Of a stretch of 64,000 bases of DNA, positions 1 through 59,700 are shown piece after piece; the first letter of the stretch is position 1; every line of letters starts with the position of its first letter. The DNA is from Amoebophrya sp. A120 (Eukaryota; Protista; Dinoflagellata). The notes beneath the pieces are model-generated. The model ran no database searches, had not been told where the DNA came from, and worked only from the letters and a program-made list of their open reading frames with translations. The stretch spans positions 7,861,650 through 7,925,649 of the forward strand of contig CAJINV010000002.1 in the NCBI GenBank assembly GCA_905178155.1, in the 5' to 3' direction. Made by a program: the position numbers and the translations under genes.

Positions 1-700
1 TAATATTCTGGATTCAGTTCTTGGAATATCAGCTGTAAAAATGTCTGGGTCTGGAAGGTCACAACTTGTGATGCTGTCTCTGGATTCTGAAAGAAATTTG
101 TATTGCATGACCTTCTTTACCCCTCAACCACTGACCAGCAAGAGGACTCCAGTTTGTGCTACGCGGAGAGGGCATTTCTCGTGCGGTAGAGGTATCACAG
201 AGCCCTTTAAAAATCTGTGATGCTGCGGCATGTATTACAGACATCATGGCTCATGAAAAATATGCATGACAAATCTAGAAATTTTCCAGACCCAGACATT
301 TTTACAGTTGATATGGAATCCAAATCGCACGACGTCCGGCTCCGCGATCGCAGGAGGCAACGGGTTGTGCTGCTGGTGCATACCGCCTACTGTACCGCTT
401 TCCGGTGTTGAACGCATGGTGACTCCCGGCGGAGTTCCGGCTGGAAAAGAACCGCTAAGTTTGTCGGCTCCAAGGGAGTCCGATTTCATAATCGCCTCCT
501 GCCATGGCATTTGCCTGCTCCGGGGGAGTAGCGTGCGCTGCAGAGCCGCGTTGTGAGGATGAAACCTAGTCATGCCAACATCTTCAGGAGAGCGCACGAC
601 CTCCATCACGGTCGCAGGCCCATCGCCCGCCTGACCAAAATTGCACGGTGGTCCTGCGCTGTTCTGCATACACAGCCCCAGCATCCTTAATAGCTTCATC
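1..700 (-). CDS. Hypothetical protein, partial; interrupted by introner 27-313 and running off the window start
   Basis: ORF 244..864 reads ...DVVRFGF into the element. Removing the element plus one TGGAA gives in-frame RFGFQELNPEY to the window edge. The upstream exon boundary is approximate. Confidence 0.5.
27..313. mobile_element. Introner/MITE family A (287 bp), TSD TGGAA
   Basis: 30-bp TIR tatcagctgtaaaaatgtctgggtctggaa (27-56) vs ttccagacccagacatttttacagttgata (284-313), 1 mismatch. TGGAA at 22-26 and 314-318. Confidence 0.92.
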
Positions 701-1603
701 TTGTTTTTCCTCCTTCGTGGTGTGTTGAGTTCCTTTCCCCTACGACTTTTTTCTGTTGGTGCGAGAATCTTCCAATCAAGTTGTACTATCGGAGACGTCA
801 TCGCGTTTCCTCTCGTGGTTTTTGATATGCGTGTTTCTTTTCTGTGGATCCAAAGAAGAACCACTGCCCTCTGCTTATCGCATTGTCAAAATTATAGACC
901 CCACGAACAAAAAAGCGCTTTGCCATCCCTCGGCATCTACAACCATGCGGGCCGGTGGCCTTGTTGTGTTTCTGTGTGAAGTTTCGTGCTAAAGCCGACG
1001 AAAGCGAGACGGTATCAAGCATGAAAAATTGCATGCAGCTCCAATTTGATTTCATCGTCGACTTCGGCCAGCAAAAATGAGGGATATTCTCGAGAGTCAA
1101 ACTGTTCGCAAACTGAAGAAAACGAATAACTACAAAGATAAAACCTTCAACGAAGTCTTTTTTACAAAACTAGTTCCTCTTTTGGCGTCAAAGACAGAAG
1201 ACCACAAGGACTCGAAAAAAAATATGGTAGAGCATAGCGAAAGCGATTCATCACACACTTCTGCCACCTCCCAGTAACAAACTTTCTTCGTGAGGTACCA
1301 CCAGGAAGTAAAACAACAACATGTCGTGACGTTGTTTGGAGCTTGATAAAATGCAATAGAAGTGGAAATCATAAAATTGGAAATTTGTTTATATGTAGAA
1401 AGAAAGAAGTGTGATTATCAGTACTGTATTCTTGAAAGTGCTCGAACAAACCCTGAATTCTCGAAGCATGTGCTGCAGAGCTCAGGTGATCTTTGTCTCC
1501 GTACAACTTCGCGAAGACTCTATTCAACAAATTCAAATTTCATCACTATTTAAGTGAATCACAATCAAGAAGAGTCAATAGCTACCTCTGCTCTTTCTGT
1601 TGA

Positions 1604-9239: not shown

Positions 9240-10960
<1,721 letters not shown>

Positions 10961-11864
10961 CTACTTTGGTTACAGGTTTCAAAACGGTTTGAGTTGTCAG
11001 TTGAAGTTTTACACCGAGTTGTAGTATTCTCAGGTCACACCTAACCTTATCTTTTCAAGCTTTCAGAGGGTTAGTAATCTTTGTTGGGTTCGCGAAAGTC
11101 GTCTCTGTGTTGTGACAATTTGAATCTGGTTGCTTGGAAATTTGACAACTTGTGTTTTGAACGATAAGGATAAGAGCCCTATGGTGGAGAATTTCCATTT
11201 ACTACTTACCGCTTTTACCTCTCGCACAGACATGCACGCCTTGGCCTTGTCGAGAATGAATATAAACTACCGCCTCAACAATCTAGTAGGTACTATCCCT
11301 GGTCCTTGAATCCTTGCCTTTCTCAGTGCTATTGAAGAAGCAAAAATTTCACTGGTGTCTGAAGATGAAGTTATCCTGAATCAGGCATGGATCTCGATGT
11401 CCTTCACGAATAGCTTTAATTGCCTATCATGCGAAGTTGGAGCAAATTTGCTGCGGGAAAAAAACGAAAACGGAGGAAAGTGCTAGATTCTTATCAAGTA
11501 AAAAAACACTTCTTTTGCACTACAACATGCCTTGACGCAATCATTGTTGTTCTGCTGCGATTGCACTACTTTTGCTTTTTTAGAAAAACTGCACTCTCAC
11601 GGCTGATATTCAGGCAGGAAAAAACGTCGCAACTACAAATGACCGAAAAACTATCGTGTTCATCATAGACCTAAGATCTCGAACACAGAGTTCCACAAAG
11701 AAAAAAAAAACTCAACACGGCTGTTTTTGCTTCACGGCGAAATTCTCTTACAAATGCGAGGTACATCAAAATGAGTGTGCCTGTTAATTAGAAGCGTCGA
11801 ATTTAAGAACATTAACTATGCGAGAAGTCGTGTTCACATCAATCGGCTTGGCGCCGTGGACCCT

Positions 11865-12445
11865 GAGGTCAAGAAGTTTGGCGTGGCGGCCATACGTGCG
11901 AGCATCTGGTAGTGCCGCTTGTCCATAAGTCGGTCCGGCAGCAGATCAAGCAGCAGTTGCCAAACCCACCGCTCTATGCATTGCAAATCTGTCTGGGTCT
12001 GGATGAGTGGAAGATTTGTCATGCACATTTTGCGTGACTCATAAATCTGTGATGCATGATGCCGTAGCATGACACTGACAGGTCGTTTTGTGAGGGCTTC
12101 CTAATGCCTATACCGCATGAGAAATATCCCCTACTCGTAGCAGCTAATAAAATCCTGTTTCTGCCCATGCAATACAGATTTTTTTAGAATCGAAAGGCAG
12201 CATTACAAGTTCGCATCCTTCCAGAGTCAGACCCAGACAGTTTTGCATTTGATACGCTCTACCCCATGACGACCGAGCAGGAGATGCTGGCGGCAGCGAC
12301 GGTGTTGCAGCAGAACGCGATGAATCGGCAGCGGGAGGAGGAGTTTCTGCTGTATCGGAAGGAGCAGGAGACGCAGCGGCAGGTGTTCAAATCCACCCGT
12401 TTTGAGGACGAGGAAGACGAGGTGGAGCCGATCTATTACAACTAG
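11865..12445 (+). pseudogene. Chimeric gene fragment: copy of the uL24 last exon abutting a plus-strand coding-like fragment (...QQLPNPPL|YPMTTEQEM...EPIYYN*) that carries an introner
   Basis: Frame is open across element 11975-12254 after removing the element plus CGCTC. GC3-rich codons on the plus strand; a TGA just upstream and no start codon. The minus-strand shadow frame is also open. Confidence 0.4.
11975..12254. mobile_element. Introner/MITE family A (280 bp), TSD CGCTC
   Basis: tatgcattgcaaatctgtctgggtctgga ... cagacccagacagttttgcatttgata; CGCTC at 11970-74 and 12255-59. Interior closely resembles 58874-59135. Confidence 0.88.
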
Positions 12446-12471
12446 GAAGGACGTCGAGCAGCTGGTGCTTT

Positions 12472-12697
12472 TATCCTGTGCAAAAGTATCGTACGCGTAG
12501 TAATCGCAGTCATGCATTACAAATCTCCATCCCAAGGCAAAACAGCGTGACAACTTCCATTTGTCATGCTTAACAGACTGCGCTACTGAGCCCGGGGGGG
12601 TGCGGGGTCCGAGGGGTGCACAAAGCACAGCTTCCATTTGTCATGCTGAGCTAATTTGTATTGCGATTACTACTGGTACGATACTTTTGCATTGATA
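12472..12697. mobile_element. Introner/MITE family D (226 bp), TSD GCTTT
   Basis: tatcctgtgcaaaagtatcgtacgcgtagtaatcgca ... tgcgattactactggtacgatacttttgcattgata; GCTTT on both sides. Same TIR type as 58416-58565. Confidence 0.88.
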
Positions 12698-12988: not shown

Positions 12989-13352
12989 GGTCAAAAAATG
13001 CCACGTTTTTTGAGCATTTTTGCTGGGCGTCGATAACATGACCCCGTATTTTGGGCTTTCCGCACGGGAATCTGGACTTTTGCGTAATTTTTGCGGAATC
13101 GATAACATGACCCCGTTATTTGGGCTCTTCGCGCGGGAATCTGGACTTTTGTGGAATTCGCAGAAATTCGCGAAAAATGGCGAATTCTTGAAAAATCCAG
13201 ATTTCCGTGCGACGAGCCTAAATAACAGGGCTATGTTATCGATTCCGCAAATAATCCGGAAAAGTCCAGATTCCCGTGCGGAAAGCCTTAAATACGGGGT
13301 CATGTTATCGACGCCCGGCAAAAATGGTCCAAAAACGTAGCATTTTTTGACC
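12989..13352. repeat. 364-bp foldback palindrome with 69-bp tandem subrepeats in each arm
   Basis: ggtcaaaaaatgc...gcattttttgacc; tcgataacatg at 13030 and 13099 mirrored by atgttatcga at 13233 and 13302; centre at about 13170. Confidence 0.9.
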
Positions 13353-13649: not shown

Positions 13650-14867
13650 CTATACATAGCTAGTTGTCCCGGAGGTCAAGAAGTTTGGCGTGGCGGCCAT
13701 ACGTGCGAGCATCTGGTAGTGCCGCTTGGCCATCGTCCGCTGCTGCTCCTATCAAAAGGAAAAATCCCCCCTCCCCATATCGAAGTGGAAATCTGTGATG
13801 CGGGATTTGCGTACACAAATGCGCGCTGTCTTGCAATACGGCATCGCAGCCAGATCCTCAGCCTATGGCGGGGCGTTTGGGTCTAGTTGTTTAGCATTGC
13901 AAACGGCTGTCCCCTAGGCCCAACAGCATGCCAAATCGGTTCCATAATGGCATGGAAGCCTGTGCACTTGTGTTCTTGCAAGACAGCCGTGATTTGTGGT
14001 CTCAAATCAGCAACACAAATTTTCGGAAACATGCCTTGCCGATATGGGGAGGGGGGATTTTTCCTCAGAATAGCTCCGTGCTGTGCACCACCGGACTGTT
14101 GACCGAAGTAATTCCCTTGTACTTTTTGTGCACTCTGGACTGGTTTTCGAACCTTTTCAGCAGCTCCTCGCGGTCCTCCCGGATTATTGGCACGGGGTCC
14201 GGCATCGCGCAACCGGACACTTTTGAGATACGCACGCACTCGCCGTGCATGGTGTACCTTTTATTAAAATGTGTGTGTTGATGTAATTTTGTTTGTAAAA
14301 CAAAGAAGCAGGGAAATAATTATCGTGCCTCATAGGTAAAATTTTTTCTCAACAAGAACTTCAACCACCTCTTCACCTCCGCTTCACCCTAGTTGGCTTC
14401 TTGAGAATGGGATCCACCGGCGCCACATTCGTTATGTGAATCGGTAGCTCCGTGGTACACAGGGTCTCCCCAACCGCCGTGTTCACCCGGAAGGTCTTTT
14501 TCATGTTCATCCCGTGGACCAGAACGCAGTTTTCCTTGCGCATCACCTTGCGGACCACCCCCTGCCGCCCGCTGTCTCGGCCGTAGAGCACTTGCACCAG
14601 GTCGCCCTGCTTCACGTTCATGTGGTAGGCGAGGTCCACCTTCTGTGGTATTCTGTTGTCGCGCAGAAAGTGCGGCACCGAGGGGGCGCGCGAAAATTCC
14701 AGAAACTCCTCCTTCATCAGGGGGTTCTTCCTTTTCGCCTTGATGTAGTGCTCGTTGTTCGCCCGGTTCCACCACCGCCGCCACTTCACGCCCTGCATGC
14801 GCCGCTGCATCCGCAAAAACTCTCCGCTGTTGCGGGAGTAGTGCAGGGGGCGGGACAGGGCGTACAT
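13650..14867 (-). CDS. MRPL24: Organellar (probably mitochondrial) ribosomal protein uL24; GT-AG intron 14258-14376 plus introner 13750-14072
   Basis: KOW motif KQGDLVQVLYGRDSGRQGVV, then ELPIHITNVAPVDP...PTRVKRR|YTMHGECVRISKVSG. The last exon EQQRTMAKRHYQM...SYV* is in frame after element removal. Confidence 0.88.
13750..14072. mobile_element. Introner/MITE family B (323 bp), TSD GCTCC
   Basis: tatcaaaaggaaaaatcccccctccccatatcg ... cgatatggggaggggggatttttcctcagaata; GCTCC at 13745-49 and 14073-77. Confidence 0.9.
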
Positions 14868-15623: not shown

Positions 15624-16519
15624 TCAATGTTGCGTCTCGCAGGTTTCCAGAAATTTCAAGTATGCGGCTTCGTCCATCAACTTTCCTTGCACGAAATCTT
15701 CCGCAAACTTGCCCTGCGTAAGTCGTTGCAAATCTACTAGCACTGCATGCTACTTGTCCTTGTTCTCGTTTGCTGTCATATTTCACTAACAAATTGCCCA
15801 GCAGCAGCCTACACAAATGGACAAAACATCAAAATACCTTAACAATCCAGCCCTTCCCGTAGCAATCCTCGTTTATGATAGACGGCTCGTCGACCAATTC
15901 GCTGTTGACGGCTTCTACCTCGCACTCCTGCGGGGTGTACACCTCTCCCACGGCTTTGCCGTCCCCACACTCGATAGCCGCCACGGACTCGTTGGCCGGC
16001 ACAAAGTGCGGCGGATCGGGCATGTCCACGTAAACAATCTTCCCTAGCTCCTTCTGTGCGAAGTCCGACACACCGATGGTCACTGGAGTTTTGGATTTCA
16101 TAGAAATAGAATCAAACCGATATTATGCAAAAGCAGAAACCAAAATGGCCCGCGGCTACCCGAGAAAGCAATTTCCGTCGCGACATGATAAGTAGACGCG
16201 GCCATATTTCCTTCTTCTTTTATCAAGATCACATACCAGTTCTCTTGTCGTCCTCGACTTTGAGCCACTCGTGTGTCTCTGCGAAATACGTCGCCGCTTG
16301 GTACAGCGGTCGGCTTGTGGTGTGGAGAAACCTCCGGGAGGATTGGCTCCGTGTGCTGGTAGCGGCACCGAAGGTTGTTATTCCTGTTTGCCCCGCCAAT
16401 CGACCGAGTACGGAAGCCAGCCCTTTTGTAGTCCGACTCTGGTGACTCCGGAAAATCTCGGCCTTTTGTCCGCTCGAGAAGTTGACTCTGTGAAGTTCGC
16501 GAAACGCAGGCCGCATCAT
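15624..16519 (-). CDS. GCSH: Glycine cleavage system H protein with mitochondrial presequence; 3 exons
   Basis: YFAETHEWLKVE|VTIGVSDFAQKELGKIVYVDMP...INEDCYGKGWIVK|...LMDEAAYLKFLE. Intron 16083-16236 is GT-AG; the second acceptor is uncertain. Confidence 0.88.
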
Positions 16520-17799
16520 GGTTTCCGATTGTTCTAGCGAAAAACTTTTTCAGGTGAAAAAAACCACGACTCTTAAGAAGCAAAAATTTCTGTCATGCGT
16601 TTATATAATTTGACTGTGACTTTTTAATAGCGCTAGACGACCGGATGGAATGAAGAAGAAGAACCGCTCTTGCTTTTGTAATGATCCGCTCCCTCCCAGC
16701 TTTGCAGGGAATTTCCTGTCCGCTCAAGCAGATGTGCGTCGTCTGGCTGTATTTATTTTGCCCTCGTGAATATGTTTTTGGTTTGCAAAAGTGGCTCAAG
16801 GACGCGTCTTGGCTAAACAGCGGCTCTACATAAGGAAAGAAGGAAAACGAAAGCCCGGGCACACGCACACCCGGAGCGCAAGCCGTGAAACAAAACAGCT
16901 AACCCCAAGCCCCAAAACGCACGGAGCCGGCACCGCAGCCTGTGCGGACGACGCCGACGGCACACGCTGAGGCTTTGTTTAGCAACTTTGACTATTTCTG
17001 AAAACATTTGTGTTGTCGCAGAAACTTGTGGTAAGTCAAAGACCACTACGCATGCAACGTCCTGTTTCGCAAGTAAGAAGTAGGAATTTCACTTTCAGTA
17101 CGTACCAATATGCTAAAACGGAGTGAAAATATTTCAAACTCCGAATACTCATTCAAACAAATAGAAAAGTAAAAAACCTGAGTGAAGCTTCTATCGAACA
17201 CCAGTGAAAAGATTGTTCCTTTCGTGGTTGTATTCATTTCATTTACAAACGCAAGCTCTACAATTCAGAGGCATCGGGGAAGTAACAGCAGATGAAGTTC
17301 TATATTCTACTAGAATGTAATCCACAACACAATCACAACCATACGGTTTCGGGTTCTTTCGTCTTTCCAGCTATTTATCTATCATACTTCTCAGAAGTCA
17401 TTTCAAACCACTGCCTCCAATACGGATGATCTTGATAACAATAAGCTCGCGTTTTCATTGAGGCAGTAACATTGTCTCCTCGCACATGAGTCCTTCGTGC
17501 AATAAATAAACAAGGTGTACGTAGTAGATACGTGTCGACATTACGCCTGCTCTTTCCGAGTACTTGAGTGAGCAATCAGTTGTCATTCCGTGGGAGCCCA
17601 CGGCTGGACCAGTTCTTGTCTGCCAACGATGGTCGTGGAAAACGAGAGCGACATACTACTCCCCGCCTCCGTTGTATCCAAGAAAAAAAGTGTGTAAGTG
17701 TAACTTTCTTTGAGAAACAGCATCACAAATTTGCTCTACATGACAGAGAAAACCTGTCATGCGTGGCTTGTAAGGGAAAACACACATGAAAAGAGGACT

Positions 17800-24851: not shown

Positions 24852-24918
24852 GGCAATGGTGAAAACCGCAATGGCAATGGAAGAGGAAAACCGCAATGGC
24901 AATGGTGAAAACCGCAAT
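24852..24918. repeat. Short minisatellite, 3 units of about 21 bp
   Basis: ggcaatggtgaaaaccgcaat twice, flanking a 25-bp variant. Confidence 0.8.
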
Positions 24919-36219: not shown

Positions 36220-37014
36220 GTTCCATAGATCAACGATGCGAGGAAGATCACTCAGAAAACAAAAGTATCTTGTCTTTTGGTCTTTTTTGTCTACTCCTGT
36301 AGGCCTCACGCATTCACGCTATTAATTTCTATACTTTTACGACTTACATGCTGAGTGCGCGCACAGATAGCAAGGCGCCCTGTTTCTGGGATACCTGGGA
36401 GCCTTATCCTCCCTTGCTGGGTACAAGCGATTTCGCCCGTATGTGGTCCGCCTCGGTGGACTGAAAAAAGCGATCGATGAACGGATACATTGGAAAAATT
36501 CGCACTGTCCAAAAGATTAATAGATTGTAGCTGATGCATTGCCACCCGGGGGGAGGCGAAAGTTTCAAAAGCGGCACTATTCATACCTGATAAAGCACCA
36601 GGGGTGATAGCAAGTAGTGTTGCGTGGATCTTCGAATGTTTTGGCGTCCGCGCACTTGTCGGCTGCGATGGCACATTCCGCTTTGGTGCCGGATTTTCAT
36701 TATCGACTGCAAATAAACCAATTAGGGAAAGCGCCAGTGAAGGAGTCCGCGCGACGACGCAGGCTCAGCCCCTTTTCCATTACTCTAGAGGGACAAACAA
36801 GATGATGAGCATCAACATGTTGTACCGAGTCCAAGACACTATAAAGTCAATACAGACAATATGTAGTACCGGCTGTCGCAGTTCCGGCTGACGCAGCTAT
36901 TACTCGGTAACTTCGCCTCTGCCGTGTTGCCGCCAACAAACCCGGAGGGTTCCATAGATCAACGATGCGAGGAAGATCACTCAGAAAGCGCGCTTAGATC
37001 AACGATGCGAGGAA
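36220..37014. repeat. 39-bp exact direct repeat (36220-36258, 36949-36987) plus a 20-bp third copy (36995-37014)
   Basis: gttccatagatcaacgatgcgaggaagatcactcagaaa occurs twice; tagatcaacgatgcgaggaa occurs a third time. Confidence 0.85.
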
Positions 37015-37594: not shown

Positions 37595-37862
37595 TATGAA
37601 ATGCAAACATGTAGTCTCGGTCTGGAACTTGTGATGCGCGGAAGGGAATACCTAGCGCGCACACTGCATATGCGATGCAAAGCATGACAAGTTTTCCCGC
37701 GGTTCTGAGTTGTGTACTTACTCCGGATGAGAAACTGCGTTTTTGCATGACAGGCCAGGGGGGCTCTTTGCGGCCACGCAATACAGAGTTCGGAGCCATG
37801 CCAGACTAGCGCGACAAGTGAGTCTCGCAATGTCCCAGACCCAGACATAATTGCATTTGATA
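37595..37862. mobile_element. Degenerate family A element (268 bp), TSD eroded, not in a recognised CDS
   Basis: tatgaaatgcaaacatgtagtctcggtctggaa ... cccagacccagacataattgcatttgata. Interior shares atgagaaactgcgtttttgcatgac with 34176-34428. Confidence 0.8.
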
Positions 37863-39010
37863 CTACCTATGATGACTACAGCTGTTGGAGACACAACTAA
37901 ATACTACGCGCGACTCTCCTTCGAGACTCACACATCCGTCGTTTTCGGCCTCTGAGGGCGCCACCCTTCGCGACGTTCCTCCTGCGTGTTCCTGCTCAGC
38001 AGTTGCAAAAGTGTAGGTCGTCAAGAGATGGCGCAGGTACTCTGCCCTACGCTTGTTACGGCATCTGCATCCGGTGCAGGCGTAGGTGCAGGTGAAGGCG
38101 GCTCACCTTCCACGTGTTCCAGAACCGCTTGAAAGGTAGAGGAGGGCAGCACCAGTTGCAATTCATCTTTCAGGCTTTTCAGCATCTCCGCAACAAGATC
38201 GGGGAAACGCCGGGAGGGAAGGAGTATTGCGCTCTATCCAACAAAACAACTGTGGCTCGCCAGAAAATTTCAAAATTTACAAATCAATGTGCGAAGAACT
38301 CAAAAAAATGCAAGGCAAGGCACCGCAATCCGCCAAAATGAGCGATCGTCGTGCTGGTCGTACCGTCGCAGCTTGTTCAGAATTAATCTCACATATCATC
38401 AGGGCAAGTACTTTAAGTACTTGCCCTTATGAGCACAGTTATGAGCTTGTTCAGAACAGTTAGTTTTCTAATAGCAAACTAACTGTTCTCGCAAATTCCG
38501 AAAACTTGGTGGATACACTTGCATGTAAGGCCGCTGGCATGTGCTGCTGCTCACTTAAAAGAAATCTTGCATCAGCGGCCTTTTTTGTTTTCTTGGATAA
38601 TAAGCCCGCGCGGTCAACTTCAGCCATTTTCAAAAGGGTTCCAAATTATGCATTGCAAATGCAATAGTATCTGGCTCTGGAGAAGTGGAGCTCCTTAGGT
38701 GTGGTAGGCGCGCGCCTGTTTTGCGTTGCTGGAAAATCTGTAGTGCGTGACCCGAAAATAAATGGGTGGGTGAATGCGTGGCGCCGCGTGACATACCTCA
38801 TCAGTAATAGATCCGATCGGCCTGCTTGCTTCGACGCCATTTGGCCAGCACGAGCGCCCACCAAGCATGCAGATTTGAGAGAGAGAGAGAGAGAGTTAGT
38901 GATGCAAAACCATGATTATCCGGCGCCGGCCCCGGCCCGGGGCCCGGCCTCCTGCAGGGGTGATTCAGTTGCTTCGGTTACCCATACCTTCGAAAGCGCA
39001 CACTCTCTAG

Positions 39011-42000
39011 CTATTCGTCATGCAGTATTACCGCTTGCAATAATGAGAATTCCGTACTAGAAAGCGTTCGAAACGCTTGCCGGCGTGCTTGGGTACGAAT
39101 AAATGTATATGTGTCAGCAGTCCCACATCCAGAATGTCCAGACGACAAGAAAGATACTACATTTGCAATGCATATCACTTCCTCTGCAATTTTGTTCTTG
39201 CTCGCTTCGCCCTGAAATTGTTCTGCCTCCGCCGCCCTGAAATACAGGGCATAAAGTTTCAGGACAACGCGGTAGGTGCTCGGAGTCGGCTCCAAATTTT
39301 CTGAACGGATTTCCTCCAGCATGTCCTCGGCGTCTTTGATCCGCCTTGCTACGTCGCTAAAAGATGAAGCGTCGCTTGCTTTTTCGAGATATCGGCTGAT
39401 CAACGCGTAGTACGTGAGAGCATCGTGATCCACGTTGTATTTTAGCATCGAATCCAGAACCCACTTAACCCCCTCTTCTGTTTTCGAAGCGGGCATCCGG
39501 GGCGTTCTTCTGCTTCGGGTCCTGTCTTGCTCTTGATTCTGATAGTTGGTGCCGCAGTACGCAAACAAGAACTTGTTATACGTTTCTACCTTGGGGGGTC
39601 CTACGTGTGTTGTACCGCCAGGCTGCTGCTCCTGCGCCATCTGCTCATGCATCATTTCGAGAACCCTCCGTGCGCTATCGGTATCGTCCGCGTTTAGGTA
39701 ACGCACAACCAGTTCTTCCGCAATCCCAAATGTGAACTTGTCTGGCGTCCCCACTGCCCGCAACATCTGTCCCAGGATCCGTCTTTGCTCTTCTTTCGGG
39801 ACACTTTTGGGCGGGTTGCGATGCTCGCGTCTAGTTCTAGGCCTGCTATAGAGGCGTAGGAGGTTGTAGAGATGCTCCCTACTGTCTCTGGTGGTGGCGT
39901 CCATTGCTTCCAGATGCGCAACGAGCAGACCGAGCCGCGCGTTATCCCTACAAAACCACGGACCAGTCCCTGCCTGCTGCGTAAGTAGGAGGTTGTCGTA
40001 AAAGGCCAGGTCGACCGGTGCGCCGCTACTCATCGAACTTCCCTTATTGTTCCCCTTGCCGCCATCGCTGCTGCTTCTGGGCCACCAACCAGACCGCAAC
40101 TGCACTGTCCCCAGCTTTGCTGCCACCTCAATATCGCATGCAAATGTGTCTGGGTCGGGAAAACTCTGATACGCATTTTTTTTAAGATCGCGGCCACGGA
40201 AAGATCTGTCATGCTTGGGCAGTAAAAGTTGCTCTTCTTGTTGTTACCAAGAGAAGTTAGTTATTTGTCACGCAGTGGCCTAGGCATTTAAGAAACAGTC
40301 TCAAGAAGAACAGCTGTGGGCGTGGTTCCAGGGCTTTGCGTGGCAGATCATCTTCTGGGCCACGGAGACACTGCATCACAGGCTTCAGCAATCTTCCAGA
40401 CCCAGACACATTTGGATTTGATACTCCATTTCGCGGAGCAGCTCCCTGGCCTGCTCTGTCCTGCCCGTCCTAGCATACTGTTGCAAAATAATACGGAAGG
40501 TAGCAACGCTAGGCATCACATTTGCGTCCTGTTCCATCAAGTCCAGCACGCGGCTAATGCCGTCGCGGATAATGTCGCCACGCTTTTCGTTGTCGCCTTC
40601 CGCGTCAGCCGCATGACCGTGCGCATCCAACAGCGCGTGGTAGGTGGCGACATTCGGCGCAATGCCTTCCACTATCATCATTTGAAACTCATCATATGCG
40701 CCCCGAACGTTGCCGCTCGTAGCGCAGGCACCAACTAGCGCGTTGTAGGTGGCGACATTCGGCGCCACGTCTGCGCTCTTCATCATTTGAAATACACAGC
40801 GCGCACCCAGTTCGTCGCGATTGCGGGCGTAGGCCTGTATAAGAACGTTGTAGGTGGCTACATCCGGCGCCACGCCTTCCGCTGCCATCATTTTAAACGC
40901 ACGGCATGCACCCGGAACGTCGCCCTTCTTAGCGTAGGCATCCACTAGCGCGTTGTAGGTGAAGACATTCGGCGCCACGCCTTCCGCTCTCATCTTTGGA
41001 AGCACATCGCATGCGCCCGGAACGTTGCCACTCTTGGCGCAGGCACCAACTAGCGTGTTGTAGGTGACCACATCCGGCGCCACGTCTGCGCTTCTCATCA
41101 TTTGAAATACACGGCGCGCACCCAGTTCGTCGCGATTGCGGGCGTAGGCCTGTATCAGAACGTTGTAGGTGCCGACATTCGGCGCTACGCCTTCGGCTAT
41201 CATCCTTTTAAACACATCCCATGCGCCCGGAACGTCGCCACTCTTAGCGAAGGCATCCACTAGCGCGGTGTAGGTTAAGGCGTTCGGCGTCAGACCTGCG
41301 GCTCTCATCATTGGAAGCACACTGTATGCGCCCGGGGCGTCGCCATTCCGAGCGTGAGCTCCTATGAGCATGGTGTAGGTGGCGACATCCGGCTCCAGGC
41401 CTGCGTCTTTCATCTTTTGAAACACACGGAATGCGCCCAGAACGTCGCCCCTCTTGGCGTAGGCATCCAGCACCGCACCGTAGGTGGCGACATCCGGCGG
41501 CGCGTTGTCCTTCGTCATCCTTGTCAGGATAGCCTCGGCGCCCTCCAGATCGCTAATATTCAGATATCCTCTCCGCAGCGTGTTGTAGGTGACGACATTC
41601 CGCGGCACGTGGTCGCGCTTCATCCTCTGCAGGACATCTTCTGCGCCCTCGAGATTGCCAACCTTCACATAGCCGCTCAACAACGTGTTGTAGGTGACGA
41701 CATTCCGCGGCACGTGGTCGCGCTTCATCCTCCGCAGGACATCTTCTGCGCCCTCGAGATTGCCAGCCTTCCCATAGCCGCTCAACAACGTGCTGTAGGT
41801 GACGACATTCGGCGCAACTTTGTTCTCGTCGGCCTTCATCCTCGTCAGGATAGCTTCTGCGCCCTCCAGATCGCCAGCCTCCACATAGCCGCTCAGCAGC
41901 GTGTTATAGGTGACGACATTCGGCGCCTCTTTGATCTCTACCATCATCCTCGACAGGATAGCTTCTGCGCGCTTTAGATTGGACCTGCCAGCCTTCACAT

Positions 42001-42977
42001 AGACGCTCAGCAACGTGTTGCACGTGACGACATCCGGCACCACGTTGTCCCCCTTCATACGCGACAGGATAGCCTCTGCGCCCGCCTCATCCCCAGCCTT
42101 CACATAGCCGCGCAGCAACGTGGTGTAGGTGACGACATCCCGCGCCACGTTGTCCTCCTTCATCCTCGACAGGACAGCTTCTGCGCCCTCCAGATTGCTA
42201 GCCTTCTCCTCTACATGGCCGCCCGGCAAAATGTTGCAGGAGGAGGTGTTCTATACAATGCAAAGATGATGTCTGGGTCTGGAAGACTCCAGGCGTTCTG
42301 GTCATGTCGCTCTTCCACGCACCAGCCACAAGAGGCCAGCACCGTTGGGAAGAGCATGTCGGGCTGCCTGTAGTTGTTCCGGAAGGTCTTTCTCTTTGTC
42401 TTTCTCTTTTCATCAGTCCCTGAATTGCATGAGAAACATCATCCCCCAGCTTGACTAAAAGTGGGCAGCGCGACGGACTCTTCTGCTGGGAGCCATGCAA
42501 GACAGATTTAGTCTGTATCTGTGACCTACCGAGGGTGGAACAAGTCTGCATCCCTCCAGACCCGGACATTGTAGCTGCGGTTGATATATCTTCATCCACG
42601 TAGCGCTGAATTTCCTTGTTGAAGAACATGGACACAGATTTATGATATCCACCTTTCCCGCCCCCCACGCGCGACGGGGATCCATGACGAGACGCCGGCC
42701 CTTTGCCACTGCCTTTGCCGCCGCTGCCTCGTCCTCTTCCCTTCATCGAACCAGTTCCCTTATTCCCCTTGCCGCCATGGCTGCTGGTTCCGAGCTGCAA
42801 ACCAGATTGAAACTTCACAGCCACCACTGTTTGGAAAAAGTAGGTAGTGCTCGGAGTAGTCTGAAAACGTTCCCCACTCAGCAACGCTCCCAAGAAATCT
42901 CCTTGCATGTTGAAAAACAGGCCACCGGCGTAGGTCGTTGCAAGGACGCGACGAACAGAGGGGAGCATTTTCATTTT
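39011..42977 (-). CDS. Pentatricopeptide repeat (P-class PPR) protein, about 14 canonical plus several degenerate motifs; interrupted by 2 introners
   Basis: 35-aa repeats PDVVTYNTLL..Y.K.G....A..I...M in ORF 40385-42229. Flanking ORFs join in frame after removing elements 42252-42586 and 40132-40423 (+5 nt each). Start and 3' end uncertain. Confidence 0.88.
40132..40423. mobile_element. Introner/MITE family A (292 bp), TSD CTCAA/CTCCA
   Basis: tatcgcatgcaaatgtgtctgggtcgggaa ... ttccagacccagacacatttggatttgata. Confidence 0.85.
42252..42586. mobile_element. Diverged family A introner (about 335 bp), TSD degenerate
   Basis: tatacaatgcaaagatgatgtctgggtctggaa ... tccagacccggacattgtagctgcggttgata. 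Removing 340 nt gives YVDEDTSSCNILPGGHV in frame with the PPR ORF. Confidence 0.72.
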
Positions 42978-44281
42978 TATCGAGACCGTCTGTAACTGAA
43001 GCACTCTAATGAAGTAGAAAGATAAAGATAAACCAATATTTTAAATTACTCGGATAAAGTCAGAAGCAACCTTTCTGTTCAAAGCGAAAATCAAGAGGAG
43101 AAGAGAATTTTTAAGAGACAAATGAAAGAGTAAGAGACCGCGTCTTGCAGCCAAATAATAAATATCCTAGGCCTTGACGATTCTAGCAGAAGACAGTAGG
43201 GGTTGTGGTTTTATTTGGAAAATCAGGGTATATCAGCGCTCACTATGTATAGTTAAATGTAGATGTTTTCAGTACCGGAGAATCAAACCCAGAAACAATG
43301 AAAGCTCCTGCGCCGAAAGCTTGTTTCTTGGTTTTTTCCAAAATGTCAAATTGTATTTCCGCTGCCCATTAGCATCAACAGGAGGGAAGTGATGTCATGA
43401 TCTCAAATTTTTCAGCTGCGCCAGCACGCGTACTTAGTCAACAATCTTCGCGATTCGTGACATCTGGCCGCACAACCGACAGTTCTCTACTACTCCCCTC
43501 GAAAATGAGTGATCCATTTCTTTTGTAGTGATCCATTTCCAATTCACTAATTAGTCTCACCACGGTACCGAGTGAAATTTTCCTTGCCTTCAGGTGGTAG
43601 GTTGCAGTAGAGAAGAGCAGTTTGTTTCTTCAGAAGACTTTTCGACTTTGATTTTGCTTTCGAACATTTTTAGCTTTGAACTCGCATTTGATCCGATGTC
43701 GTCAAAGATCCGATCGGATTTGTTTCGGCAAACATTTCACCGACTGGATGAAGCAAACTTACTGGAGAAAGCTGATTTTTGGCCCAGTAATCAACTTCGA
43801 ACTCTGGATCCAAAAAGCTTCAAACAAAAGCAAAACATTATCTATACTAAGAGGAGATCAGAATGTACTTAAGTACCTCTCCATCGATCCAGATTGCATA
43901 CTTACACCTCCCTCTCGATCTTCAAATAACGCCGAAAATCTTCTTCGGAGACGGCGCGACTACACCGAAATGCATGATCTCTACTCTACCTCGGTGTACA
44001 TTCACGGACTGAACGCCAAGGAACTTCATGCTGAGTCTTCACCTTTCAGGCTGTCAAGTACTAAGGTACTCGCTGAACAAAGTCGGCAACTGCGGTTGCG
44101 ACTACGTACTGCATTTTTGTGCTGTTTAGAGCCAAATTCTTGTTTTAGTGTTCCTCGTCGTTGATCGCTACAAGAACGCCAACAAAGCAAACCCGGAACC
44201 GAGTTTCATCGGCACTAGCTCTGGTGTTCAACTGGAGATCAGACGAAAAAATCCCGTTTACTGAATCAAGTACGACGAGCT

Positions 44282-46228: not shown

Positions 46229-48835
46229 TTAGTCATCTACAAAAACCCCCGCGTTCGCACCGGTTAAGTCCGCGATGTTTACTACTCTCTCCTCAATCTG
46301 TTGTTGCGTCGTATGAAGAACCGCTTCCTGCGTAGTACCTTGGGCAGCTGCTTGCCCAGATACGGTCAGGTTCAAATCCTCCCCCTCGTCCCCGACAAAC
46401 ATCTCAATTTCTTCGTCTAAATTCTGGTACTTTTGCAACACGTGCTGCAGCAGCTTTCGTTCCGCCTCGGCGCCCTTGTAGATGAACGCGTTGTCGGGTT
46501 GTTCCACGACCGCGTCCTCGTACAGGGTATCCACGATTTTGTACGCGTAGCCCTGCTCCACCAGGTACTGCTGTCTCTTCGACGCGTAGTACATCTCTTG
46601 CGTGTCCTTCGACACCAGCGAATAGAAGTACGCGTTCACGTCGCTCGCGCTCTTGGTCGCGCTGGTGATCTTCTTCGGCCGCAGAATCCGGCCCAGCCGC
46701 TGCGCCTCCTGCCGTCGCGAGGCGAAGTGCGCGTTGATCTGGATCACCACATTCGCGGACGGCAGGTCGATCGCGTTGTCGCCGACTTTGGACAGAAACA
46801 ACGTCCCCACCGCCGGATCCTCCTTGAACTTCCGCAGAATCACTTCCCGCTCCCGGTTCGGCACCTCCCCGTAGATGTAGTACCGCTTCATCGCCTCGGC
46901 GAAGGTTTTCAAAATCTCCGTGTTGTCGGAGAAAACGAGGATTTTGTCGCCCCGCTTCTCGTGGAACCGAATGAGAAACTCCGCGAGGCACAGTTTGATC
47001 GGGTTGCACGTGAACAACAGCCGCGCGGTCGCGTGCTTGCCGCGTTCGTTGATCTTTTTCAGGTACTCCTCGTAAAACCTCTCCGACATCTGGCACCACA
47101 CCTCCACACACTGCACCTTCGCGAGGTAGCCGAGGTCTTGCAGCTGGTGCCAGTTCGCCTCGTACAGCTTCGGCCCGATCAGCCACTGCAAATCCGTGAT
47201 CAGGTCGTCCTCCCTGACTAATGTCGCGGTGAGCCCGAGCTTGCACCGGGACCGCACCGTCAACGCGACTTGGCGAAACGTCTTCGCCGGCATCACCTGC
47301 ACCTCGTCGCAAATCAACAGCCCCCACTCCACCGCGCGGATCTGGTTCATGATGTAGCGCGTGTCTTGGCCGCGGCGGCCGGAAAACCCGATCATGGAGT
47401 AGGTGGAGATCACGACGCAGGCCTCGAACACGTCCTTGATCGCGGTCTTGTGGTCCGCCGTGAACTGGAAAATGTCGTCCTTCTTGATCGTCGAGAACTG
47501 CAGGAACTGCTGTTGCCACTGGGACACCGCCATCGCGGTCGAGGTCAGAACTAACGTTCGCTTCTTGATCGTCGAGCACGCGGTGATCCCCACGCAGGTC
47601 TTCCCCGCGCCGCAGGGGAGGACAATGATCCCGGACCGCGCGCGCGTGCTCGTGGTGAACATTTTGGACAACGCGATCTCCTGGTACTCGCGGATGTGGG
47701 TCGAGGGCTTCATGGAGATGTCCAAATCCGGCGCTTTCTTGTCCAGCTTGTACTCGTACTCCTCGAGGAGGGGAAAGTTGTTCACGAAAGCCAGCTTTTT
47801 CACCTCTTCCGCGCGATTGCCATCGACGCGAATGTAGTACAGCTCCGTGGGAAAGTCGTCGTCAAAGTCGGACGTGGACAACTCCTCCTCATACTCTTCC
47901 ATCAGCAGGTCACTCAGCGCGTTTGAAGAGGACGAGGATCTGTTCATTTGCCACCTCCTGCGCTTGTTCGAGGGGTGGTCATTTGCCGAGTTGTTTGTTC
48001 TAACTGGCAGCGACTCGGTGACGAGGTTCTGTTCCTGCAGAATTTCCTGCAACTGCTCCAACGCATCGTAATCGGTTGATTCCAAGTAGTGATGCACCGA
48101 CTCGCCGACGTCCTGGAAAGCGCGAGAAAAAACTGAAGCGCCACCCGCTGATCCAGCTCCTGTAGTTGCAGCTGCACCTGGGCCTAGTTGTGCGGGATGA
48201 AGCAGTGGCTGAAACTGGGATGATGAACCAGATGCAGTTGCTGTGCCTGCAGTACTTCTACCTCCCTGCTGGTCAACAAAATTATTTGTTCCTAGTGCAG
48301 CTCCTGTGTTATTTCTTGCGAAGTTTGCTGCTGAGTTCAACGCCAACTGGCTTTTGTTCCACAGGTACTTCACCTTTCCCAAATTTTGCGCGTACTGCCG
48401 AATCCACTTGAGCAAAACGTCGTCCACCTTGTTCTTCGAGAGTTTGTGCAGACTCTCTTCGATGTCCGATATCGTTAGGCCCGAAGAAACGGCGGAATAC
48501 AGGGAAAATGTGGTGATTTGGTACTCCTGCAGCCCCTCCGGGCGGGCCACCGGCTCGGCGACCGTGATGCAGAAGTCCTCGGCGTGGGCGAAGAACTTGT
48601 GGAAGGTTTCGAGCAGGATGAGTCCGTCCTTGAAAACGGTGAGCGGGCGGGATTCGTAGCCCTTTACCAACTGCATCGGCCCGTCGTCGAAGGTGCAATG
48701 GATGTTCGGGCGCCCGGGCATGGCCTCCAGCGTCGCCTCCAGCCCCGATTCGCCCGTGTCGTTGACATTGTAGTCCTGGTCGCTGAAGGCGTCTTCGGCG
48801 ACCAGGAGTTGGCGGCCCCGCGAGGAAGTGGCCAT
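46229..48835 (-). CDS. XPB: TFIIH DNA helicase/translocase XPB (ERCC3/Ssl2)
   Basis: RSGIIVLPCGAGKT, LLICDEVQ, LGLTATLVREDD, LIGPKLYEANW, SRRQEAQRLGRILRPK, FYSLVSKDTQEMYYASKRQQYL. Confidence 0.97.
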   Translation of the reverse strand: MATSSRGRQLLVAEDAFSDQDYNVNDTGESGLEATLEAMPGRPNIHCTFDDGPMQLVKGYESRPLTVFKDGLILLETFHKFFAHAEDFCITVAEPVARPEGLQEYQITTFSLYSAVSSGLTISDIEESLHKLSKNKVDDVLLKWIRQYAQNLGKVKYLWNKSQLALNSAANFARNNTGAALGTNNFVDQQGGRSTAGTATASGSSSQFQPLLHPAQLGPGAAATTGAGSAGGASVFSRAFQDVGESVHHYLESTDYDALEQLQEILQEQNLVTESLPVRTNNSANDHPSNKRRRWQMNRSSSSSNALSDLLMEEYEEELSTSDFDDDFPTELYYIRVDGNRAEEVKKLAFVNNFPLLEEYEYKLDKKAPDLDISMKPSTHIREYQEIALSKMFTTSTRARSGIIVLPCGAGKTCVGITACSTIKKRTLVLTSTAMAVSQWQQQFLQFSTIKKDDIFQFTADHKTAIKDVFEACVVISTYSMIGFSGRRGQDTRYIMNQIRAVEWGLLICDEVQVMPAKTFRQVALTVRSRCKLGLTATLVREDDLITDLQWLIGPKLYEANWHQLQDLGYLAKVQCVEVWCQMSERFYEEYLKKINERGKHATARLLFTCNPIKLCLAEFLIRFHEKRGDKILVFSDNTEILKTFAEAMKRYYIYGEVPNREREVILRKFKEDPAVGTLFLSKVGDNAIDLPSANVVIQINAHFASRRQEAQRLGRILRPKKITSATKSASDVNAYFYSLVSKDTQEMYYASKRQQYLVEQGYAYKIVDTLYEDAVVEQPDNAFIYKGAEAERKLLQHVLQKYQNLDEEIEMFVGDEGEDLNLTVSGQAAAQGTTQEAVLHTTQQQIEERVVNIADLTGANAGVFVDD

Positions 48836-49578
48836 GCTATAAGAGGTGCCTCGCTGGCTCGATAGTGTTATACTAGAAGGAGATTTTGCAGGATGTACAA
48901 GTAGAGTACCTCCTCGAGGGTTCCTCCACCATCATCGTGGTGATGTCCAGGGGAGGACGGGGGGCTTTGCTTCTGTAGTGATCTTGACTCGCACTTACAA
49001 GAAGCGTGAACAGGGGTAATGGGGGAGTAAGAGTCGACTGAGAAAGTAAGAGGTGTTCTTCGGTGAAGTGAAGGAAAGTAAGGAAAAAAATCTCTGTCTA
49101 AACAAGCCTGCAATGAATCGTAGGGCATGACGGTCGCAACTAGCTTCCAATAAGACAAGATTGTTCTACTTCTAGGACAAGCAAATGAAGGCGTGTTGCT
49201 CATCGTAATAAGCTGCATCTGAGATCTTCAGTCACATCGTTGTTCAACAACGAGCTTCTGAGCTGAGTCGTGATCTGTGATTCGATAGCGCCACCGTCAG
49301 ACGTCCAGATCATTTTCTGACCTCTGTGCATCGTTGTTGGTCGTGAACCAGAATCTTCAGAAAGCGTCATCAGCAACAGCATTATAACAAGTACGGTGAG
49401 TTTCTCTTCTAATGGCGACCGACTCTTTTTGCAGGCACGAAAAGTACACCTCTTGCACCGCGAAAACATGGCGAGAGCTTGCTATCGGTCTTTGGACCAC
49501 AATTGGCACGAAGCTTGGTGACTCCTCGTCGTGCTTGCCGTCAAATACTTTTTTTAGTGGCGCCTCTGCGCGCGCGGC

Positions 49579-55559: not shown

Positions 55560-56770
55560 GGTGATCCGCAGCGAGACTAGTACAGCCTGGTACTTGACAG
55601 CTCTTTCCAGTTGACCATGGTGGGCCGGTACCTTTCAGCATCAGGGTAAGTACATGATGATCTCCCAGATGTCAGTCAAGTAGTCGCTGGGCATCTCCAT
55701 CGCTCTACAACTCAGAAGCAACAAATTTATCTTCATACCATACTCCTCACTCGGGCGGCAGCGAAACGGCGCTCGTCGTTTCGGAACACGAGTGTTTTAC
55801 ATCGACCTACACGGCCCTCATTCAGCAGAAGCAGAACAGCTGCTTCATAGCTGCATCGCATAGAAAATTTAAATTCCCGAAAGGGCACTGGGAATAAAAA
55901 GCGTGTAGTCCTGTGTCTCATTCCATCGCACCACGTCTCGGTGACACAAATTTGGAACAGATCAGTGCCGAGGGGGTGAGTAGTACGGGGTAGAACCAAA
56001 GGTACAAAAATCGGAATCAGATTACAAATACAAGGTTCTTGTGGGTATCAACTACGGAAGAAAAAAAGCGCACGGGTTACGTTAGAGGTTCAGGAAGAGC
56101 AGAGCTCTTGTCTTTGAAATTCCCAAAATGCCACATGCCTGTACGTAGCGTCTTGATAAATTCCCAGTCTCATCAAAAATCCCGGTAAGAAATTACGACT
56201 TTTGGTATCTTGCCGCCGCGTAAAGAAAAATGATATGATGAAGTACGATATCTTTTTGCTTTTGGTATTTATATTTCACCTCGAGGTACAGAAAGTTATG
56301 CGCGTGGGTATCCCGGTAGAAATGAAGATCTTCTGAAACATGCGACAAACTAACAGGCTCTAAGAGCAGTCAGACCGTTGACGATTGATGTTTAGCAGTT
56401 GGACCATCGTCTGACTGTCAAGGGGGCCTTTACGGCTACTCAGCCTACCGATTCCAGGCAAGTTCCCCGACAGAAAAACGGATGGCTTTCTGCTGAATAA
56501 AAGAACTGCTGAAGATAGTGATTGCACAAACTGCCTTTATCAACTACCTTTGACTTTGTTTTTGACGTAGATCATTCATCAAAAATCGGAAGTGAAAAAA
56601 ATCTGAAAAATAGTTCACAGTCGCTTTACAAGAGTTTCAAATAAAGCATTTTTCTTTGGCCACCGCTTTCTGACACCAGAACGCGTTACTTGTCCGCATG
56701 ACGTTCAACACGCTACTGGTGCTTATGTTCAGGAAAATGATCCAGCAGCCAAATAAAGTCGCCCAGCACT

Positions 56771-59700
56771 TCAGGGGCTCGTCATTTCTGTGCCCTTTTC
56801 CGCGTCCTTCCCAGCTGCGGGGCTGACCTTTTTGTTGTCGCCTCCGTAGAACTTGGCCATCGATTCCTTGCAGAAGTAGCACATGGCCGCGAAGGCCACG
56901 CCCGCACAGAAGCACAGGCCGAACAACACTCCGATCAGAATCCACAGCCACGTCAAGGAATCTCCCTCGTCGTCCTTCTTCTCTTCGGCCGCAGTGCCCC
57001 CCGTGGCCGCTCCACTGCTTTGCGGCGATCCCTGCGTTCCGGCGTTGGCCACGGCGCTCGGAACGCTGTCCCAGCCGGAGCCCTGCACGGAGGGGTTTTG
57101 CCAGTTCGCGCCGCCCTCCGCCGCCGCACCGCCCGCGACGTTGGACAACGCCGGCTTGGAAGCCAACCCGTTCACGGCGAGCACCAGGCTTGCGGAGGAC
57201 AGCGTGCTGTCCGCCTGCGATTCCTGCCCGAAGTAGTCGACCAAAAGATTCCCGAACCCCGGGTCCGCGACCTGCTCCATCAGTTCGTCGGGGGACTGCG
57301 GCGGGGCGGAGTCACTGGCACTACTGCCCATGCTACTCCCCGTCGGAGGAGTTACCGTCGCGTCCGCCTGGATCAGCTTCTGCGTACCGTTGGAACCGGC
57401 CTGCAACAGACGGAGCAACAGGCCCTGCTCGGAAGCCGCGGAGGAGGAAACCCAAGACGAAGACGCCGCTTTGTTGTTACGCTGTTCCATTTCGAACACC
57501 TGCAGCGCTTCCTCCAGATCCGGGTCCGCAAGCAGCATTCGGGCGGTCGACACGGCGGCCGTCCCGGCCGCGTCGGTGTAGTTCAGCTTGCTCGCATCGA
57601 TGGTCACGGCGCTGCTGCTGAGACCGAGCGCGCGGGACACTGTCCGCGACAGCGCACTTACCAGTGCAGACTTGACCGTCGAGGACAGACTCGCCACGTC
57701 CGACTGGATGAGCAGCTCCAGCTTCATGTCGAACGACCCCGCGGGATCCGTGTCGAACTGCGCGAAGTGGCACCACAGGCGGTCGGCGCGGAAGACCGAG
57801 TACCGCGAGCTGTGCGTGTAGTTCATCTTCCCCACGGAAAACAGGCCGGGCTGCATGAAGCTGCAGAACCTCCGGGACAATTCACGCGCGTGCACCCCAG
57901 GCATCGCCACTCGCCGGTTCGTGTCGTCCAAGCTCGTCGGGTTGAAGGCGCCGACGAACTTCGACGCGCTCGTGTTGTTCGCGATCGCGGCGGTTGCCTG
58001 GTGCATCTTCGAGTTCCCCTTGTATTTCATGTCCAGCGTCGCGGCCGGAAACCAGGGCATGCCGGTGGGCACCGGCTTGCCGGAACCAAACACGGCGGAC
58101 TTCGCGGACCGCGACCGGATGTTCGCCGGCAGCTCCGCGCACGTGCTGGCCGACACCTCGTTGCAGAAGCCCACCGTACTGCCGTACTGCACGTTGGACG
58201 ACGCGACCGCGTCGCGGTTGCACCGCGTCTTGCTGTCGCACAGGTTGTACTCGAGCCGGTTTTCGCTCCCGGGAAGTTTCAACGCGGACCCGCGACTCGC
58301 GATCTTGTCGAACGCATTGTACTTGGTGGCCGTGAACCCGTTGTGGTTGCGGATGGCGCCCCAGGACTTGACCAGGTTGAACTCGTCGGATCCCATGTTG
58401 TTCACGATCGTGTGGTATGCAGTGCAAAAGTATCGCACTCGTAGTAGTTGCAGTCATGCATGACAAATCTGGTTCCTTAGCTCATTCAGCAATACAAATC
58501 CCATTTCTCCTTCTGGACAAATTTGCAATGCTATTTCTACTAGTACGATACTTTTGCAATGCATATGTGATTGTCCCCCTTGACGGTGAACGGGTCGTTT
58601 CCGAACAGAACGTTGCGCACCACGGTGGTGAACCGCCCCGGGTTCGTGGCGGTGCTGCTGGTGTCCAGCCGGATGGACTTGATCTTGGTCGGGCCGAAGA
58701 TGAAGTTCCCGGAAATCAGGGTCCAGTACTGGCCGTCGATCTGGATGTGGAAGCTGGCCGTGTCCTTCCAGCTGCCCATGTACCCCGTCCCCACGATCAG
58801 GTTGTTCTTGCACTGGTACCCCCGCGCCCAGTGCTTGAAGCCCCCGCCGTGCCCGTTGTACAAAAGCGTGTTCTATCAAATGTAAAAATGTCTGGGTCTG
58901 GAAGATTGGCAGGTTTGTCATGCACATTTTGCATGACTCCTGATGTCTGTGATGCATGCCCTAGCATCACAGATTTTGTGAGGGCTTCCTGATGCCTATA
59001 CCGTATGACAAATGCTCTTTCCGTGTAGCAAAACTTGGACTCTCTTTGCTGCTCATGCAATACAGATTTTTTTAGAATCCAAAATCAGCATAACAAGTTG
59101 GATTCTTCCAGACCCAGACATTTTTACATTTCATATGTTCTGCTGGAGGGTGTCCTTGAACCCGTCCCCCTGTATCCCACAGAAAAAAGCTGGCAGGTGC
59201 AGGTCATATTTGTAATGCAAAAATAAATAGACAAAAAAATTTGTATTGCATATCCTAAATAGCATGCTATGAGGCCGCCCATGGCAGATTTTTCTGTGTA
59301 TTTATTTTTGCATTACAAATATGCCCCGCCAGCTTTTTTCTGTGGGATACCCTGGAAGCAGTACTCGTAGCCGTCCGTGTTCTTCCGGTGCGCGTACCCG
59401 TTGAAGGCCACGTAGTTCCGGCTCACGAACGCGTTGCTCGCCTTGTAGCGGACCGCCCGCTTGGTGGCGCCGGCGACGATCGCGTTGTCCGCGATGAAGA
59501 GCCGCTTCCCGCTGCCCCGCCCGTTCTGCTTGGTAGTGAAGATCTGCACCGTGGCCCAGCTGCTGTGCGGGGGGGAGTACAGAAAGTGGTTGTACAGGAG
59601 GTAAATGTTCAGGTTGAACTTGTTCCCCACCAGGGGCTGGCTTTTGGAGCAGCAGTTGGTCCCGAAAAAGTGCAGCCCCTCGATCCAGATGTAGGTGTTG

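Follow-up and report, generated by a model that had tools for sequence, protein, structure and literature searches.

Inverted-repeat introns of Amoebophrya sp. A120 carry a strict 5-bp repeat and are probably removed from RNA without GT-AG ends

Introns that resemble transposons have been described in the dinoflagellate Amoebophrya sp. A120, and here we examine a 64,000-nt stretch of its genome (assembly GCA_905178155.1, contig CAJINV010000002.1, positions 7,861,650 to 7,925,649; "the window") that holds 16 such elements. The passages of Farhat et al. (2021, PMC7789003) considered here report 29,850 repeated introns in A120, with RNA support, and more than 60% non-canonical introns in both A25 and A120. 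They also report that U2, U4, U5, U6, and most spliceosomal proteins are retained in A120, with neither U1 nor a transposase detected. The inverted repeats of these introners start with TAT, seven variable bases, and at least three A's, as do those of the window elements. Short direct repeats, a length of ~240 nt, non-canonical ends, RNA support, and co-oriented genes are likewise shared. The initial annotation of the window had made this link, which is exact: the end grammar is the published A120 grammar.

This class of intron is already known, as are its grammar and RNA support, and nothing in those passages sets our elements apart in kind; the repeat here is exactly 5 bp, versus 3 to 5 nt in the paper. 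New here are the strict 5-bp duplication, removal in either orientation, an in-frame GT-AG option that goes unused, cuts inside the repeats, and a codon-register bias. Orientation independence, the cut register, and the codon-register bias are absent from the text of Farhat et al., whose figures may differ, and nothing on phase, orientation, lariats, or branch points was found in that text. Literature searches returned no paper that resolves the Amoebophrya mechanism; subscription journals, figures, and supplements may hold more.

Among transposons, Gozashti et al. (2025, PMC12130899) describe a close counterpart, A120 family 38, which they tie to integrase-related elements and list as Ginger. 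In the passages considered, family 38 shares with our elements the 5-bp target site duplication (TSD), TA/TA termini, terminal inverted repeats (TIRs), and non-canonical ends. Compared by description only, it differs in being ~808 bp long with Copia/Gypsy-like open reading frames (ORFs), none of which occur in the window. GingerRoot (PMC6839031) is described with the same TA..TA ends and absence of a base-specific target but with a 6-bp TSD and TIRs of 100 to 150 bp, versus 5 bp and ~30 to 60 bp here. TDD-4/5 (PMC2836005) share the 5-bp TSD, whereas Ginger1 and Ginger2 from the same source have TGTNR termini where ours have TAT. GingerRoot, Ginger2, and TDD are not described as introns in these passages. 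The 48 long ORFs examined in the window yielded no transposase domain, in keeping with the initial annotation.

Two other lineages offer parallels at the level of splicing. As described in the passages considered, euglenid nonconventional introns (PMC12501133, PMC11282704) share paired ends, direct repeats at the junction, coexistence with GT-AG introns, unknown machinery, and a 3' spacer longer than the 5' spacer. They differ in following an N3CDG..CHGN5-6|R code, from which the end logo of our elements departs, in needing a purine at the exon start, in having been shown to leave as circles, and in belonging to an unrelated lineage. The tunicate Fritillaria borealis (PMC13326754, PMC11282704) shares a TIR/TSD transposon origin and genome-wide non-GT-AG splicing. 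According to these sources, it differs in preferring AG-AC/AG-AT ends, in retaining U1 with N6-methyladenosine (m6A), and in having a divergent U2AF. Unlike the Fritillaria ends, the repeats of our elements prefer no dinucleotide, and the elements also lack the canonical U2 ends GT/GC..AG.

The initial annotation had listed 13 elements of 150 to 335 bp in five TIR types, and all 13 stand: 12 are well formed, and relaxed scans recovered the last (42252-42586). Three decayed copies had been missed (19338-19544, 37596-37862, and 38647-39174). The strict pattern TAT-N7-AAA..TTT-N7-ATA with an exact 5-bp flanking repeat occurs eight times in the window and not once in any of 200 block shuffles. Of the 13, the repeat is exact at nine, with one mismatch at 30344, 40132, and 58416 and three at 42252. 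The elements resemble miniature inverted-repeat transposable elements in being short, with TIRs, a fixed-length TSD, and no coding capacity. A subterminal motif common to all five TIR types has 59 matches in the 4,131 nt of 15 elements versus 39 in the remaining 59,869 nt, which indicates a single superfamily. At element ends in the window and in the related loci described below, the N7 bases are drawn from a small set common to the TIR types, and positions 4 to 7 are often mismatched between the two ends of one element. These mismatches suggest either an internal loop beside a terminal 3-bp helix or an exchange of ends. TAT and AA in the end logo are imposed by the search pattern itself.

Deleting an element with 5 nt opens the minus-strand frame at 12 of the 13 sites, in line with the initial annotation; no frame opens across 12472, the strand of the frame at 11975 is ambiguous, and the left flank of 27 is only 21 nt long. 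The resulting frames are 1036 codons long for NNT, 379 for a membrane protein, 1136 for the PPR protein, and 1996 and 883 for two orphans. The proposed absence of GT-AG junctions is correct for registers within the repeats, which give neither GT-AG nor GC-AG at any of the 13 sites (GA..AG is possible in register at 13750 and 42252). It fails for same-length placements off register, namely, a GT..AG 8 nt inside 30344 and a GC..AG 3 nt off at 17675.

To read the junctions, we compared two stretches of the window, covering 11 of the 16 elements (all except 27, 42252, 58416, 58874, and 59173), with assembled contigs of four runs (X1 to X4), all made from a single sample within one study. The RNA type of these runs is inferred, yet their contigs skip six GT-AG introns. 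At all five bridged sites, the element and exactly 5 nt are absent. The type E element at 17675-17883, which has one TAC end and an exact repeat and lies near the end of the 1996-codon ORF, is skipped as 214 nt in X1 and X2. The decayed element at 19338-19544, whose repeats differ at positions 2 and 5, is skipped as 212 nt by an X2 contig with no other letters; a canonical intron at 19334-19545 was considered and rejected, this span being the decayed element. In the NNT gene, the type A element at 28715-28976, directly after the GAND motif, is skipped as 267 nt in X2, and the type B element at 30344-30623, with one repeat mismatch, is skipped as 285 nt in all four runs. The type A element at 34176-34428, in the 379-codon membrane-protein gene, is skipped as 258 nt, also in all four runs. 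Inside 34176, only RNA-run contigs with other letters match at the positions listed. GT-AG introns are skipped on the same contigs as 28715, 30344, and 34176. The other six covered elements have no bridge among the contigs listed.

The off-register GT..AG of 30344 and GC..AG of 17675 are not used by the RNA contigs, and the former is ignored even though it is in frame in NNT. Junction reading had been proposed in the initial annotation, and it returned the loss of element plus 5 nt, with no cryptic GT-AG, at the bridged sites. The bridged joints comprise six canonical introns and five elements, in agreement with the earlier estimate that the two kinds are about equally numerous. In a 2026 RNA run with the same species label from another strain (X8), 43 partial reads match the window, about 40 of them at a 50-nt piece (28751-28801) within a type A element; related elements thus occur in that RNA.

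The DNA run X5 was compared over the first stretch only. Its contigs run from the flanks into 13750, 17675, 28715, and 30344 without differences, and one passes straight through 19338, also without differences, so that all four RNA-bridged sites within X5 coverage keep the element in DNA. An empty site is absent from X5 among the joints listed, and a rare one could remain. In the element bins, summed contig depth reaches hundreds to thousands of times that of the flanks, which is not a copy number. Of the earlier proposal that RNA or DNA is excised without GT-AG, the RNA alternative has gained support (five of five bridged sites, with DNA retention), and DNA excision has lost it.

Perfect repeats conceal the junction, whereas mismatched repeats make it visible. 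At 30344, the RNA retains position 1 from the upstream repeat copy. At 19338, the upstream copy supplies position 2 of the retained repeat and the downstream copy supplies position 5. The compatible registers are therefore those that keep 2, 3, or 4 upstream bases, none of which gives GT or AG ends. At this one site, in one contig, both cuts are thus shown to lie inside the repeats rather than at the TIR ends. The upstream copy at 40132 encodes Met, the residue expected from the PPR motif consensus, which agrees with cuts inside the repeats. Our best guess is that the cuts fall one base before TAT and four after ATA, keeping four upstream bases. We favor this register because it would give the intron an N-T-A start, resembling the GTA with which all six canonical donors in the window begin (five lack a G at +5), and because it would place 70 of 111 junctions in phase 0.

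The type A end pattern was also compared with metagenome contigs, giving at least 185 stretches that collapse to 181 loci (L001 to L181; 509 kb), all but one from JACKZZ01. The one match listed outside JACKZZ01 (L025) lacks a partner end and appears to be fortuitous, and the same pattern had no matches in viral contigs. Identity between copies in these loci and window elements reaches 96%, and 12 of the 16 window elements have a copy there with 70 to 96% identity. No unique sequence is common to the loci and the window. Given both observations, the loci may come from the same or a close organism and not from an independent one. The repeat is exactly 5 bp in 206 of 275 distinct TIR pairs (202 of 252 among pairs of ≤400 bp), a match of 6 to 8 bp occurs in none of the 275, and repeat base composition is unbiased. 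The direct repeat is therefore a strict 5-bp target duplication, which is new over the published 3 to 5 nt. The 23 pairs longer than 400 bp are mostly mispaired ends; four have exact repeats and measure 457 to 834 bp. The largest (L037, positions 632 to 1465) approaches the ~808 bp described for family 38; seven of its 13 listed ORFs were searched, with no Pfam match of any kind and no Copia/Gypsy-like ORF among them.

A codon model trained on window ORFs was applied to 225 elements with usable flanks, 10 of them from the window. Within the loci, 158 elements had coding-like flanks on both sides, 119 of these on one strand, and phase was kept after removal of the element plus 5 nt in 107 of the 119. 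Among coding sites (68 orientable of 111), the two orientations occur 20:27 for type A, 2:6 for type B, and 5:8 for type C. The elements at 28715 and 34176 face in opposite directions (interior score 73.5 versus 29, with a shuffle maximum of 22), and both are skipped in RNA. Removal is independent of element orientation. GY-AG ends are possible at 5 of 91 sites in sense and 4 of 91 in antisense, with no enrichment.

The repeat is centered on codon position 2 in 70 of the 111 coding sites, on position 1 in 23, and on position 3 in 18. Random pseudo-sites (3,000 drawn, 654 assigned) divide into 197, 221, and 236, for a null of about one third, and the bias is stable at four thresholds. A symmetric base-preference model with six bases on each side predicts 43%, versus 63% observed, and its phase term has a P value of 1.7e-7. 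In the window, four of eight sites checked are at position 2. These frames are predicted and not RNA-based, and a longer-range target preference may contribute. Earlier stop codons upon retention do not account for the bias. Roy et al., in the portion considered, explain a phase bias in Polarella by recruited splice bases; none are recruited here, so this explanation does not fit.

Folding of the minus (sense) strand beats shuffled sequence for all 16 elements (z from −2.2 to −18, 25 shuffles each; separate runs gave −8.9 and −6.7). The ends of the decayed 19338 pair on the transcribed strand only (z = −2.9 versus +0.9), a single hint of selection at the RNA level. The eight best-matched elements lean to the sense strand 7:1 (P = 0.04), being one of several subsets. 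End identity within elements is barely above that of shuffled partners (14.64 versus 14.38 of 16), a slight excess that common descent can explain. A search of Rfam returned no matches. It is plausible, on these folding predictions, that the stem would serve as a splicing guide.

We postulate that these elements are non-autonomous TA..TA transposons spliced from pre-mRNA, with a terminal stem replacing GT-AG, most likely by a remodeled spliceosome that lacks U1; we put the probability of this reading at about 0.5. An integrase-related cut-and-paste transposase encoded elsewhere would insert the element in either orientation through a 5-bp staggered cut with little sequence preference. This step is favored by the listing of A120 family 38 as Ginger with "5-bp TSD, TA/TA Termini." In the transcript, the ends are predicted to pair. 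The element and exactly 5 nt would then be removed whatever the repeat sequence or orientation, as cDNA contigs indicate, with both cuts probably inside the repeats, as at the single site where one contig reveals them. A U1-less spliceosome positioned by the stem could treat N|NTA as a relaxed form of the G|GTA-type donor. We favor it on the basis of the A120 small nuclear RNA set, the GTA donors mostly without a G at +5, and the tunicate precedent. The initial annotation had placed a second pathway alongside the spliceosome; removal independent of GT-AG is supported, whether by a separate pathway or by a changed spliceosome. Several observations weigh against our proposal. The RNA evidence consists of assembled contigs of inferred RNA status, all drawn from a single sample in one study; rare forms are lost in such contigs, no more than 5 of the 16 elements are bridged, and the cut register comes from a single contig with a depth of 6.4. 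The stem of 19338 is weak and out of register, yet its removal is exact. Across the 111 sites, pairing shows no selection for the RNA strand (80 G·U versus 70 A·C; P = 0.46), and the sense duplex is the stronger in 64 (P = 0.14). We observed no lariat, circle, enzyme, or transposase, and Farhat et al., in the passages considered, disfavored general mobilization by a transposase, having found none in A120. Finally, removal does without a GT, an AG, or a polar branch signal, as would be equally expected of a non-spliceosomal route.

That route is the main alternative: a separate endonuclease-ligase or transesterification system would remove the same elements from RNA, guided by the stem, as has been proposed for euglenid nonconventional introns. 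The irrelevance of orientation and junction sequence and the disregard of an in-frame GT-AG speak for it, as do Euglena introns, which, as described in the sources above, have paired ends and direct repeats, exit as full-length circles, and have their own spacing code. Against it, no candidate enzyme was seen, Fritillaria shows that a spliceosome can adapt, and our best-guess register would align the element start with the canonical GTA donors. We regard it as possible, at tentative strength; taken together, the two RNA routes make removal at the RNA level highly probable. Reverse transcriptase (RT) might instead have jumped over the hairpin between the short repeats, the mRNA keeping the element and the frame being rescued, for example, by ribosomes that bypass it between matching codons. 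Hairpins and short repeats are part of RT template switching, which the elements with their non-canonical ends resemble; a full codon always lies within the 5-nt repeat, and the codon-register bias would suit bypassing. However, all four runs list the skipped form at two sites, contigs matching the interior of 34176 at the positions listed all have other letters, and 19338 is skipped even though it is weakly paired and its repeats match at three of five bases, so that an RT artifact is improbable.

Two further explanations move the event to DNA or dispense with it. Excision from DNA in a developmental stage, as for the internal eliminated sequences of ciliates, with RNA made from repaired DNA, would suit the TIR and direct-repeat anatomy. 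One DNA run cannot span all stages, and its joint evidence is limited to the joints listed. But the DNA contigs are unbroken into or through the elements at a depth of 41 to 45 without differences, and we know of no separate somatic nucleus in this lineage; we consider this explanation very unlikely. Ordinary spliceosomal introns using a nearby GT/GC/GA-AG, or dead genes, might be suggested by the same-length GT..AG and GC..AG near 30344 and 17675 and the in-register GA..AG at 13750 and 42252. An inverted- and direct-repeat organization is also reported for 15% of A120 canonical introns in the passages of Farhat et al. The RNA joints rule out both off-register options, GY-AG is not enriched, and NNT, once joined, is intact and conserved. 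For the five elements bridged by RNA contigs, this explanation is largely refuted, and we give it the least weight of all.

The elements lie in minus-strand genes, including those for NNT, a PPR protein, an L24-like protein, and several orphans. The NNT gene (28138-32969, minus strand) has five GT-AG introns and two elements, and joining by RNA contigs yields its 1036-codon ORF. Retention of either element would truncate this ORF, at 642 or 1019 codons, and give it a foreign tail. Its identity, proposed earlier, is borne out by alignment to the solved mammalian NNT right up to both elements; the short last exon had no match in PDB. The earlier PXMP4 label is tentative and has no Pfam support. 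A test of which repeat copy is coding, based on homologues of 19 flanking exons, gave none above the Pfam cutoff.

The remaining elements are as follows from left to right. A type A element with an exact repeat lies at the window edge (27-313). Another with an exact repeat (11975-12254) has an ambiguous host frame, and the type C element at 12472-12697 has an exact repeat. A type B element with an exact repeat (13750-14072) interrupts the 3' part of the L24-like ribosomal gene on the minus strand. Over 71 nt, the 3' end of this gene is duplicated (94%), the copies at 11856-11926 and 13663-13733 each lying just beyond an element. At 37596-37862 lies a decayed type A element without an open frame, whose repeats no longer match and which has little or no RNA cover. 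The large PPR gene (38300-43100) holds three elements, two with decayed repeats, and has no RNA cover over the part compared; a search with its exons for homologues found no protein. Its elements are a decayed copy of 528 bp (38647-39174; frame kept on removing element plus 5 nt, little or no RNA cover), a type A element (40132-40423; little or no RNA cover), and a partly decayed type A element (42252-42586) whose removal as 335 + 5 nt gives the 1136-codon frame. An unannotated minus-strand gene contains a type C element (58416-58565), a type A element with an exact repeat (58874-59135), and a type D element with an exact repeat (59173-59349), and the three removals give its 883-codon frame.

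Other repeats occur in the window. An inverted repeat at 12989-13352 has 173-nt arms (88%), GG..CC-type ends unlike those of the TAT elements, near single-copy X5 depth, and no flanking repeat of 7 bp or more. A repeated sequence at ~24300-24860, which is not a TAT element, breaks the DNA contigs at a summed depth ~13 times that of its flanks, and variant copies occur in RNA-type contigs. An exact 39-nt direct repeat (36220-36258 and 36949-36987) is spaced by 729 nt and has a partial third copy, and a polyubiquitin array with a period of 228 bp spans 9250-10890. A single 900-codon ORF for an XPB/ERCC3 helicase (46232-48931) is free of elements. A glycine cleavage H protein exon (PF01597) lies at 15832-16122. 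The H protein requires lipoate. According to the passages of Farhat et al., the PDH, BCKDH, and KGDH complexes have been lost, together with two cofactor pathways.

For the biology of these introns, mismatched repeats disclose where the cuts truly fall, and the opposite-facing copies show that the removal signal is symmetric. We speculate, as a doubtful further step, that a second, sequence-blind splicing system measures from an RNA stem, cutting one base before and four after it in either orientation and in a manner tied to the reading frame. The tie to the frame is proposed because repeats are codon-centered in 63% of coding sites without recruited splice bases, a pattern that translation-coupled or cytoplasmic excision would produce. 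Such a system, if real, would cancel every insertion by this transposon superfamily. Should the cuts keep a fixed geometry with respect to a stem, that geometry would amount to a new splicing code and would explain how transposons could flood coding DNA at low cost.

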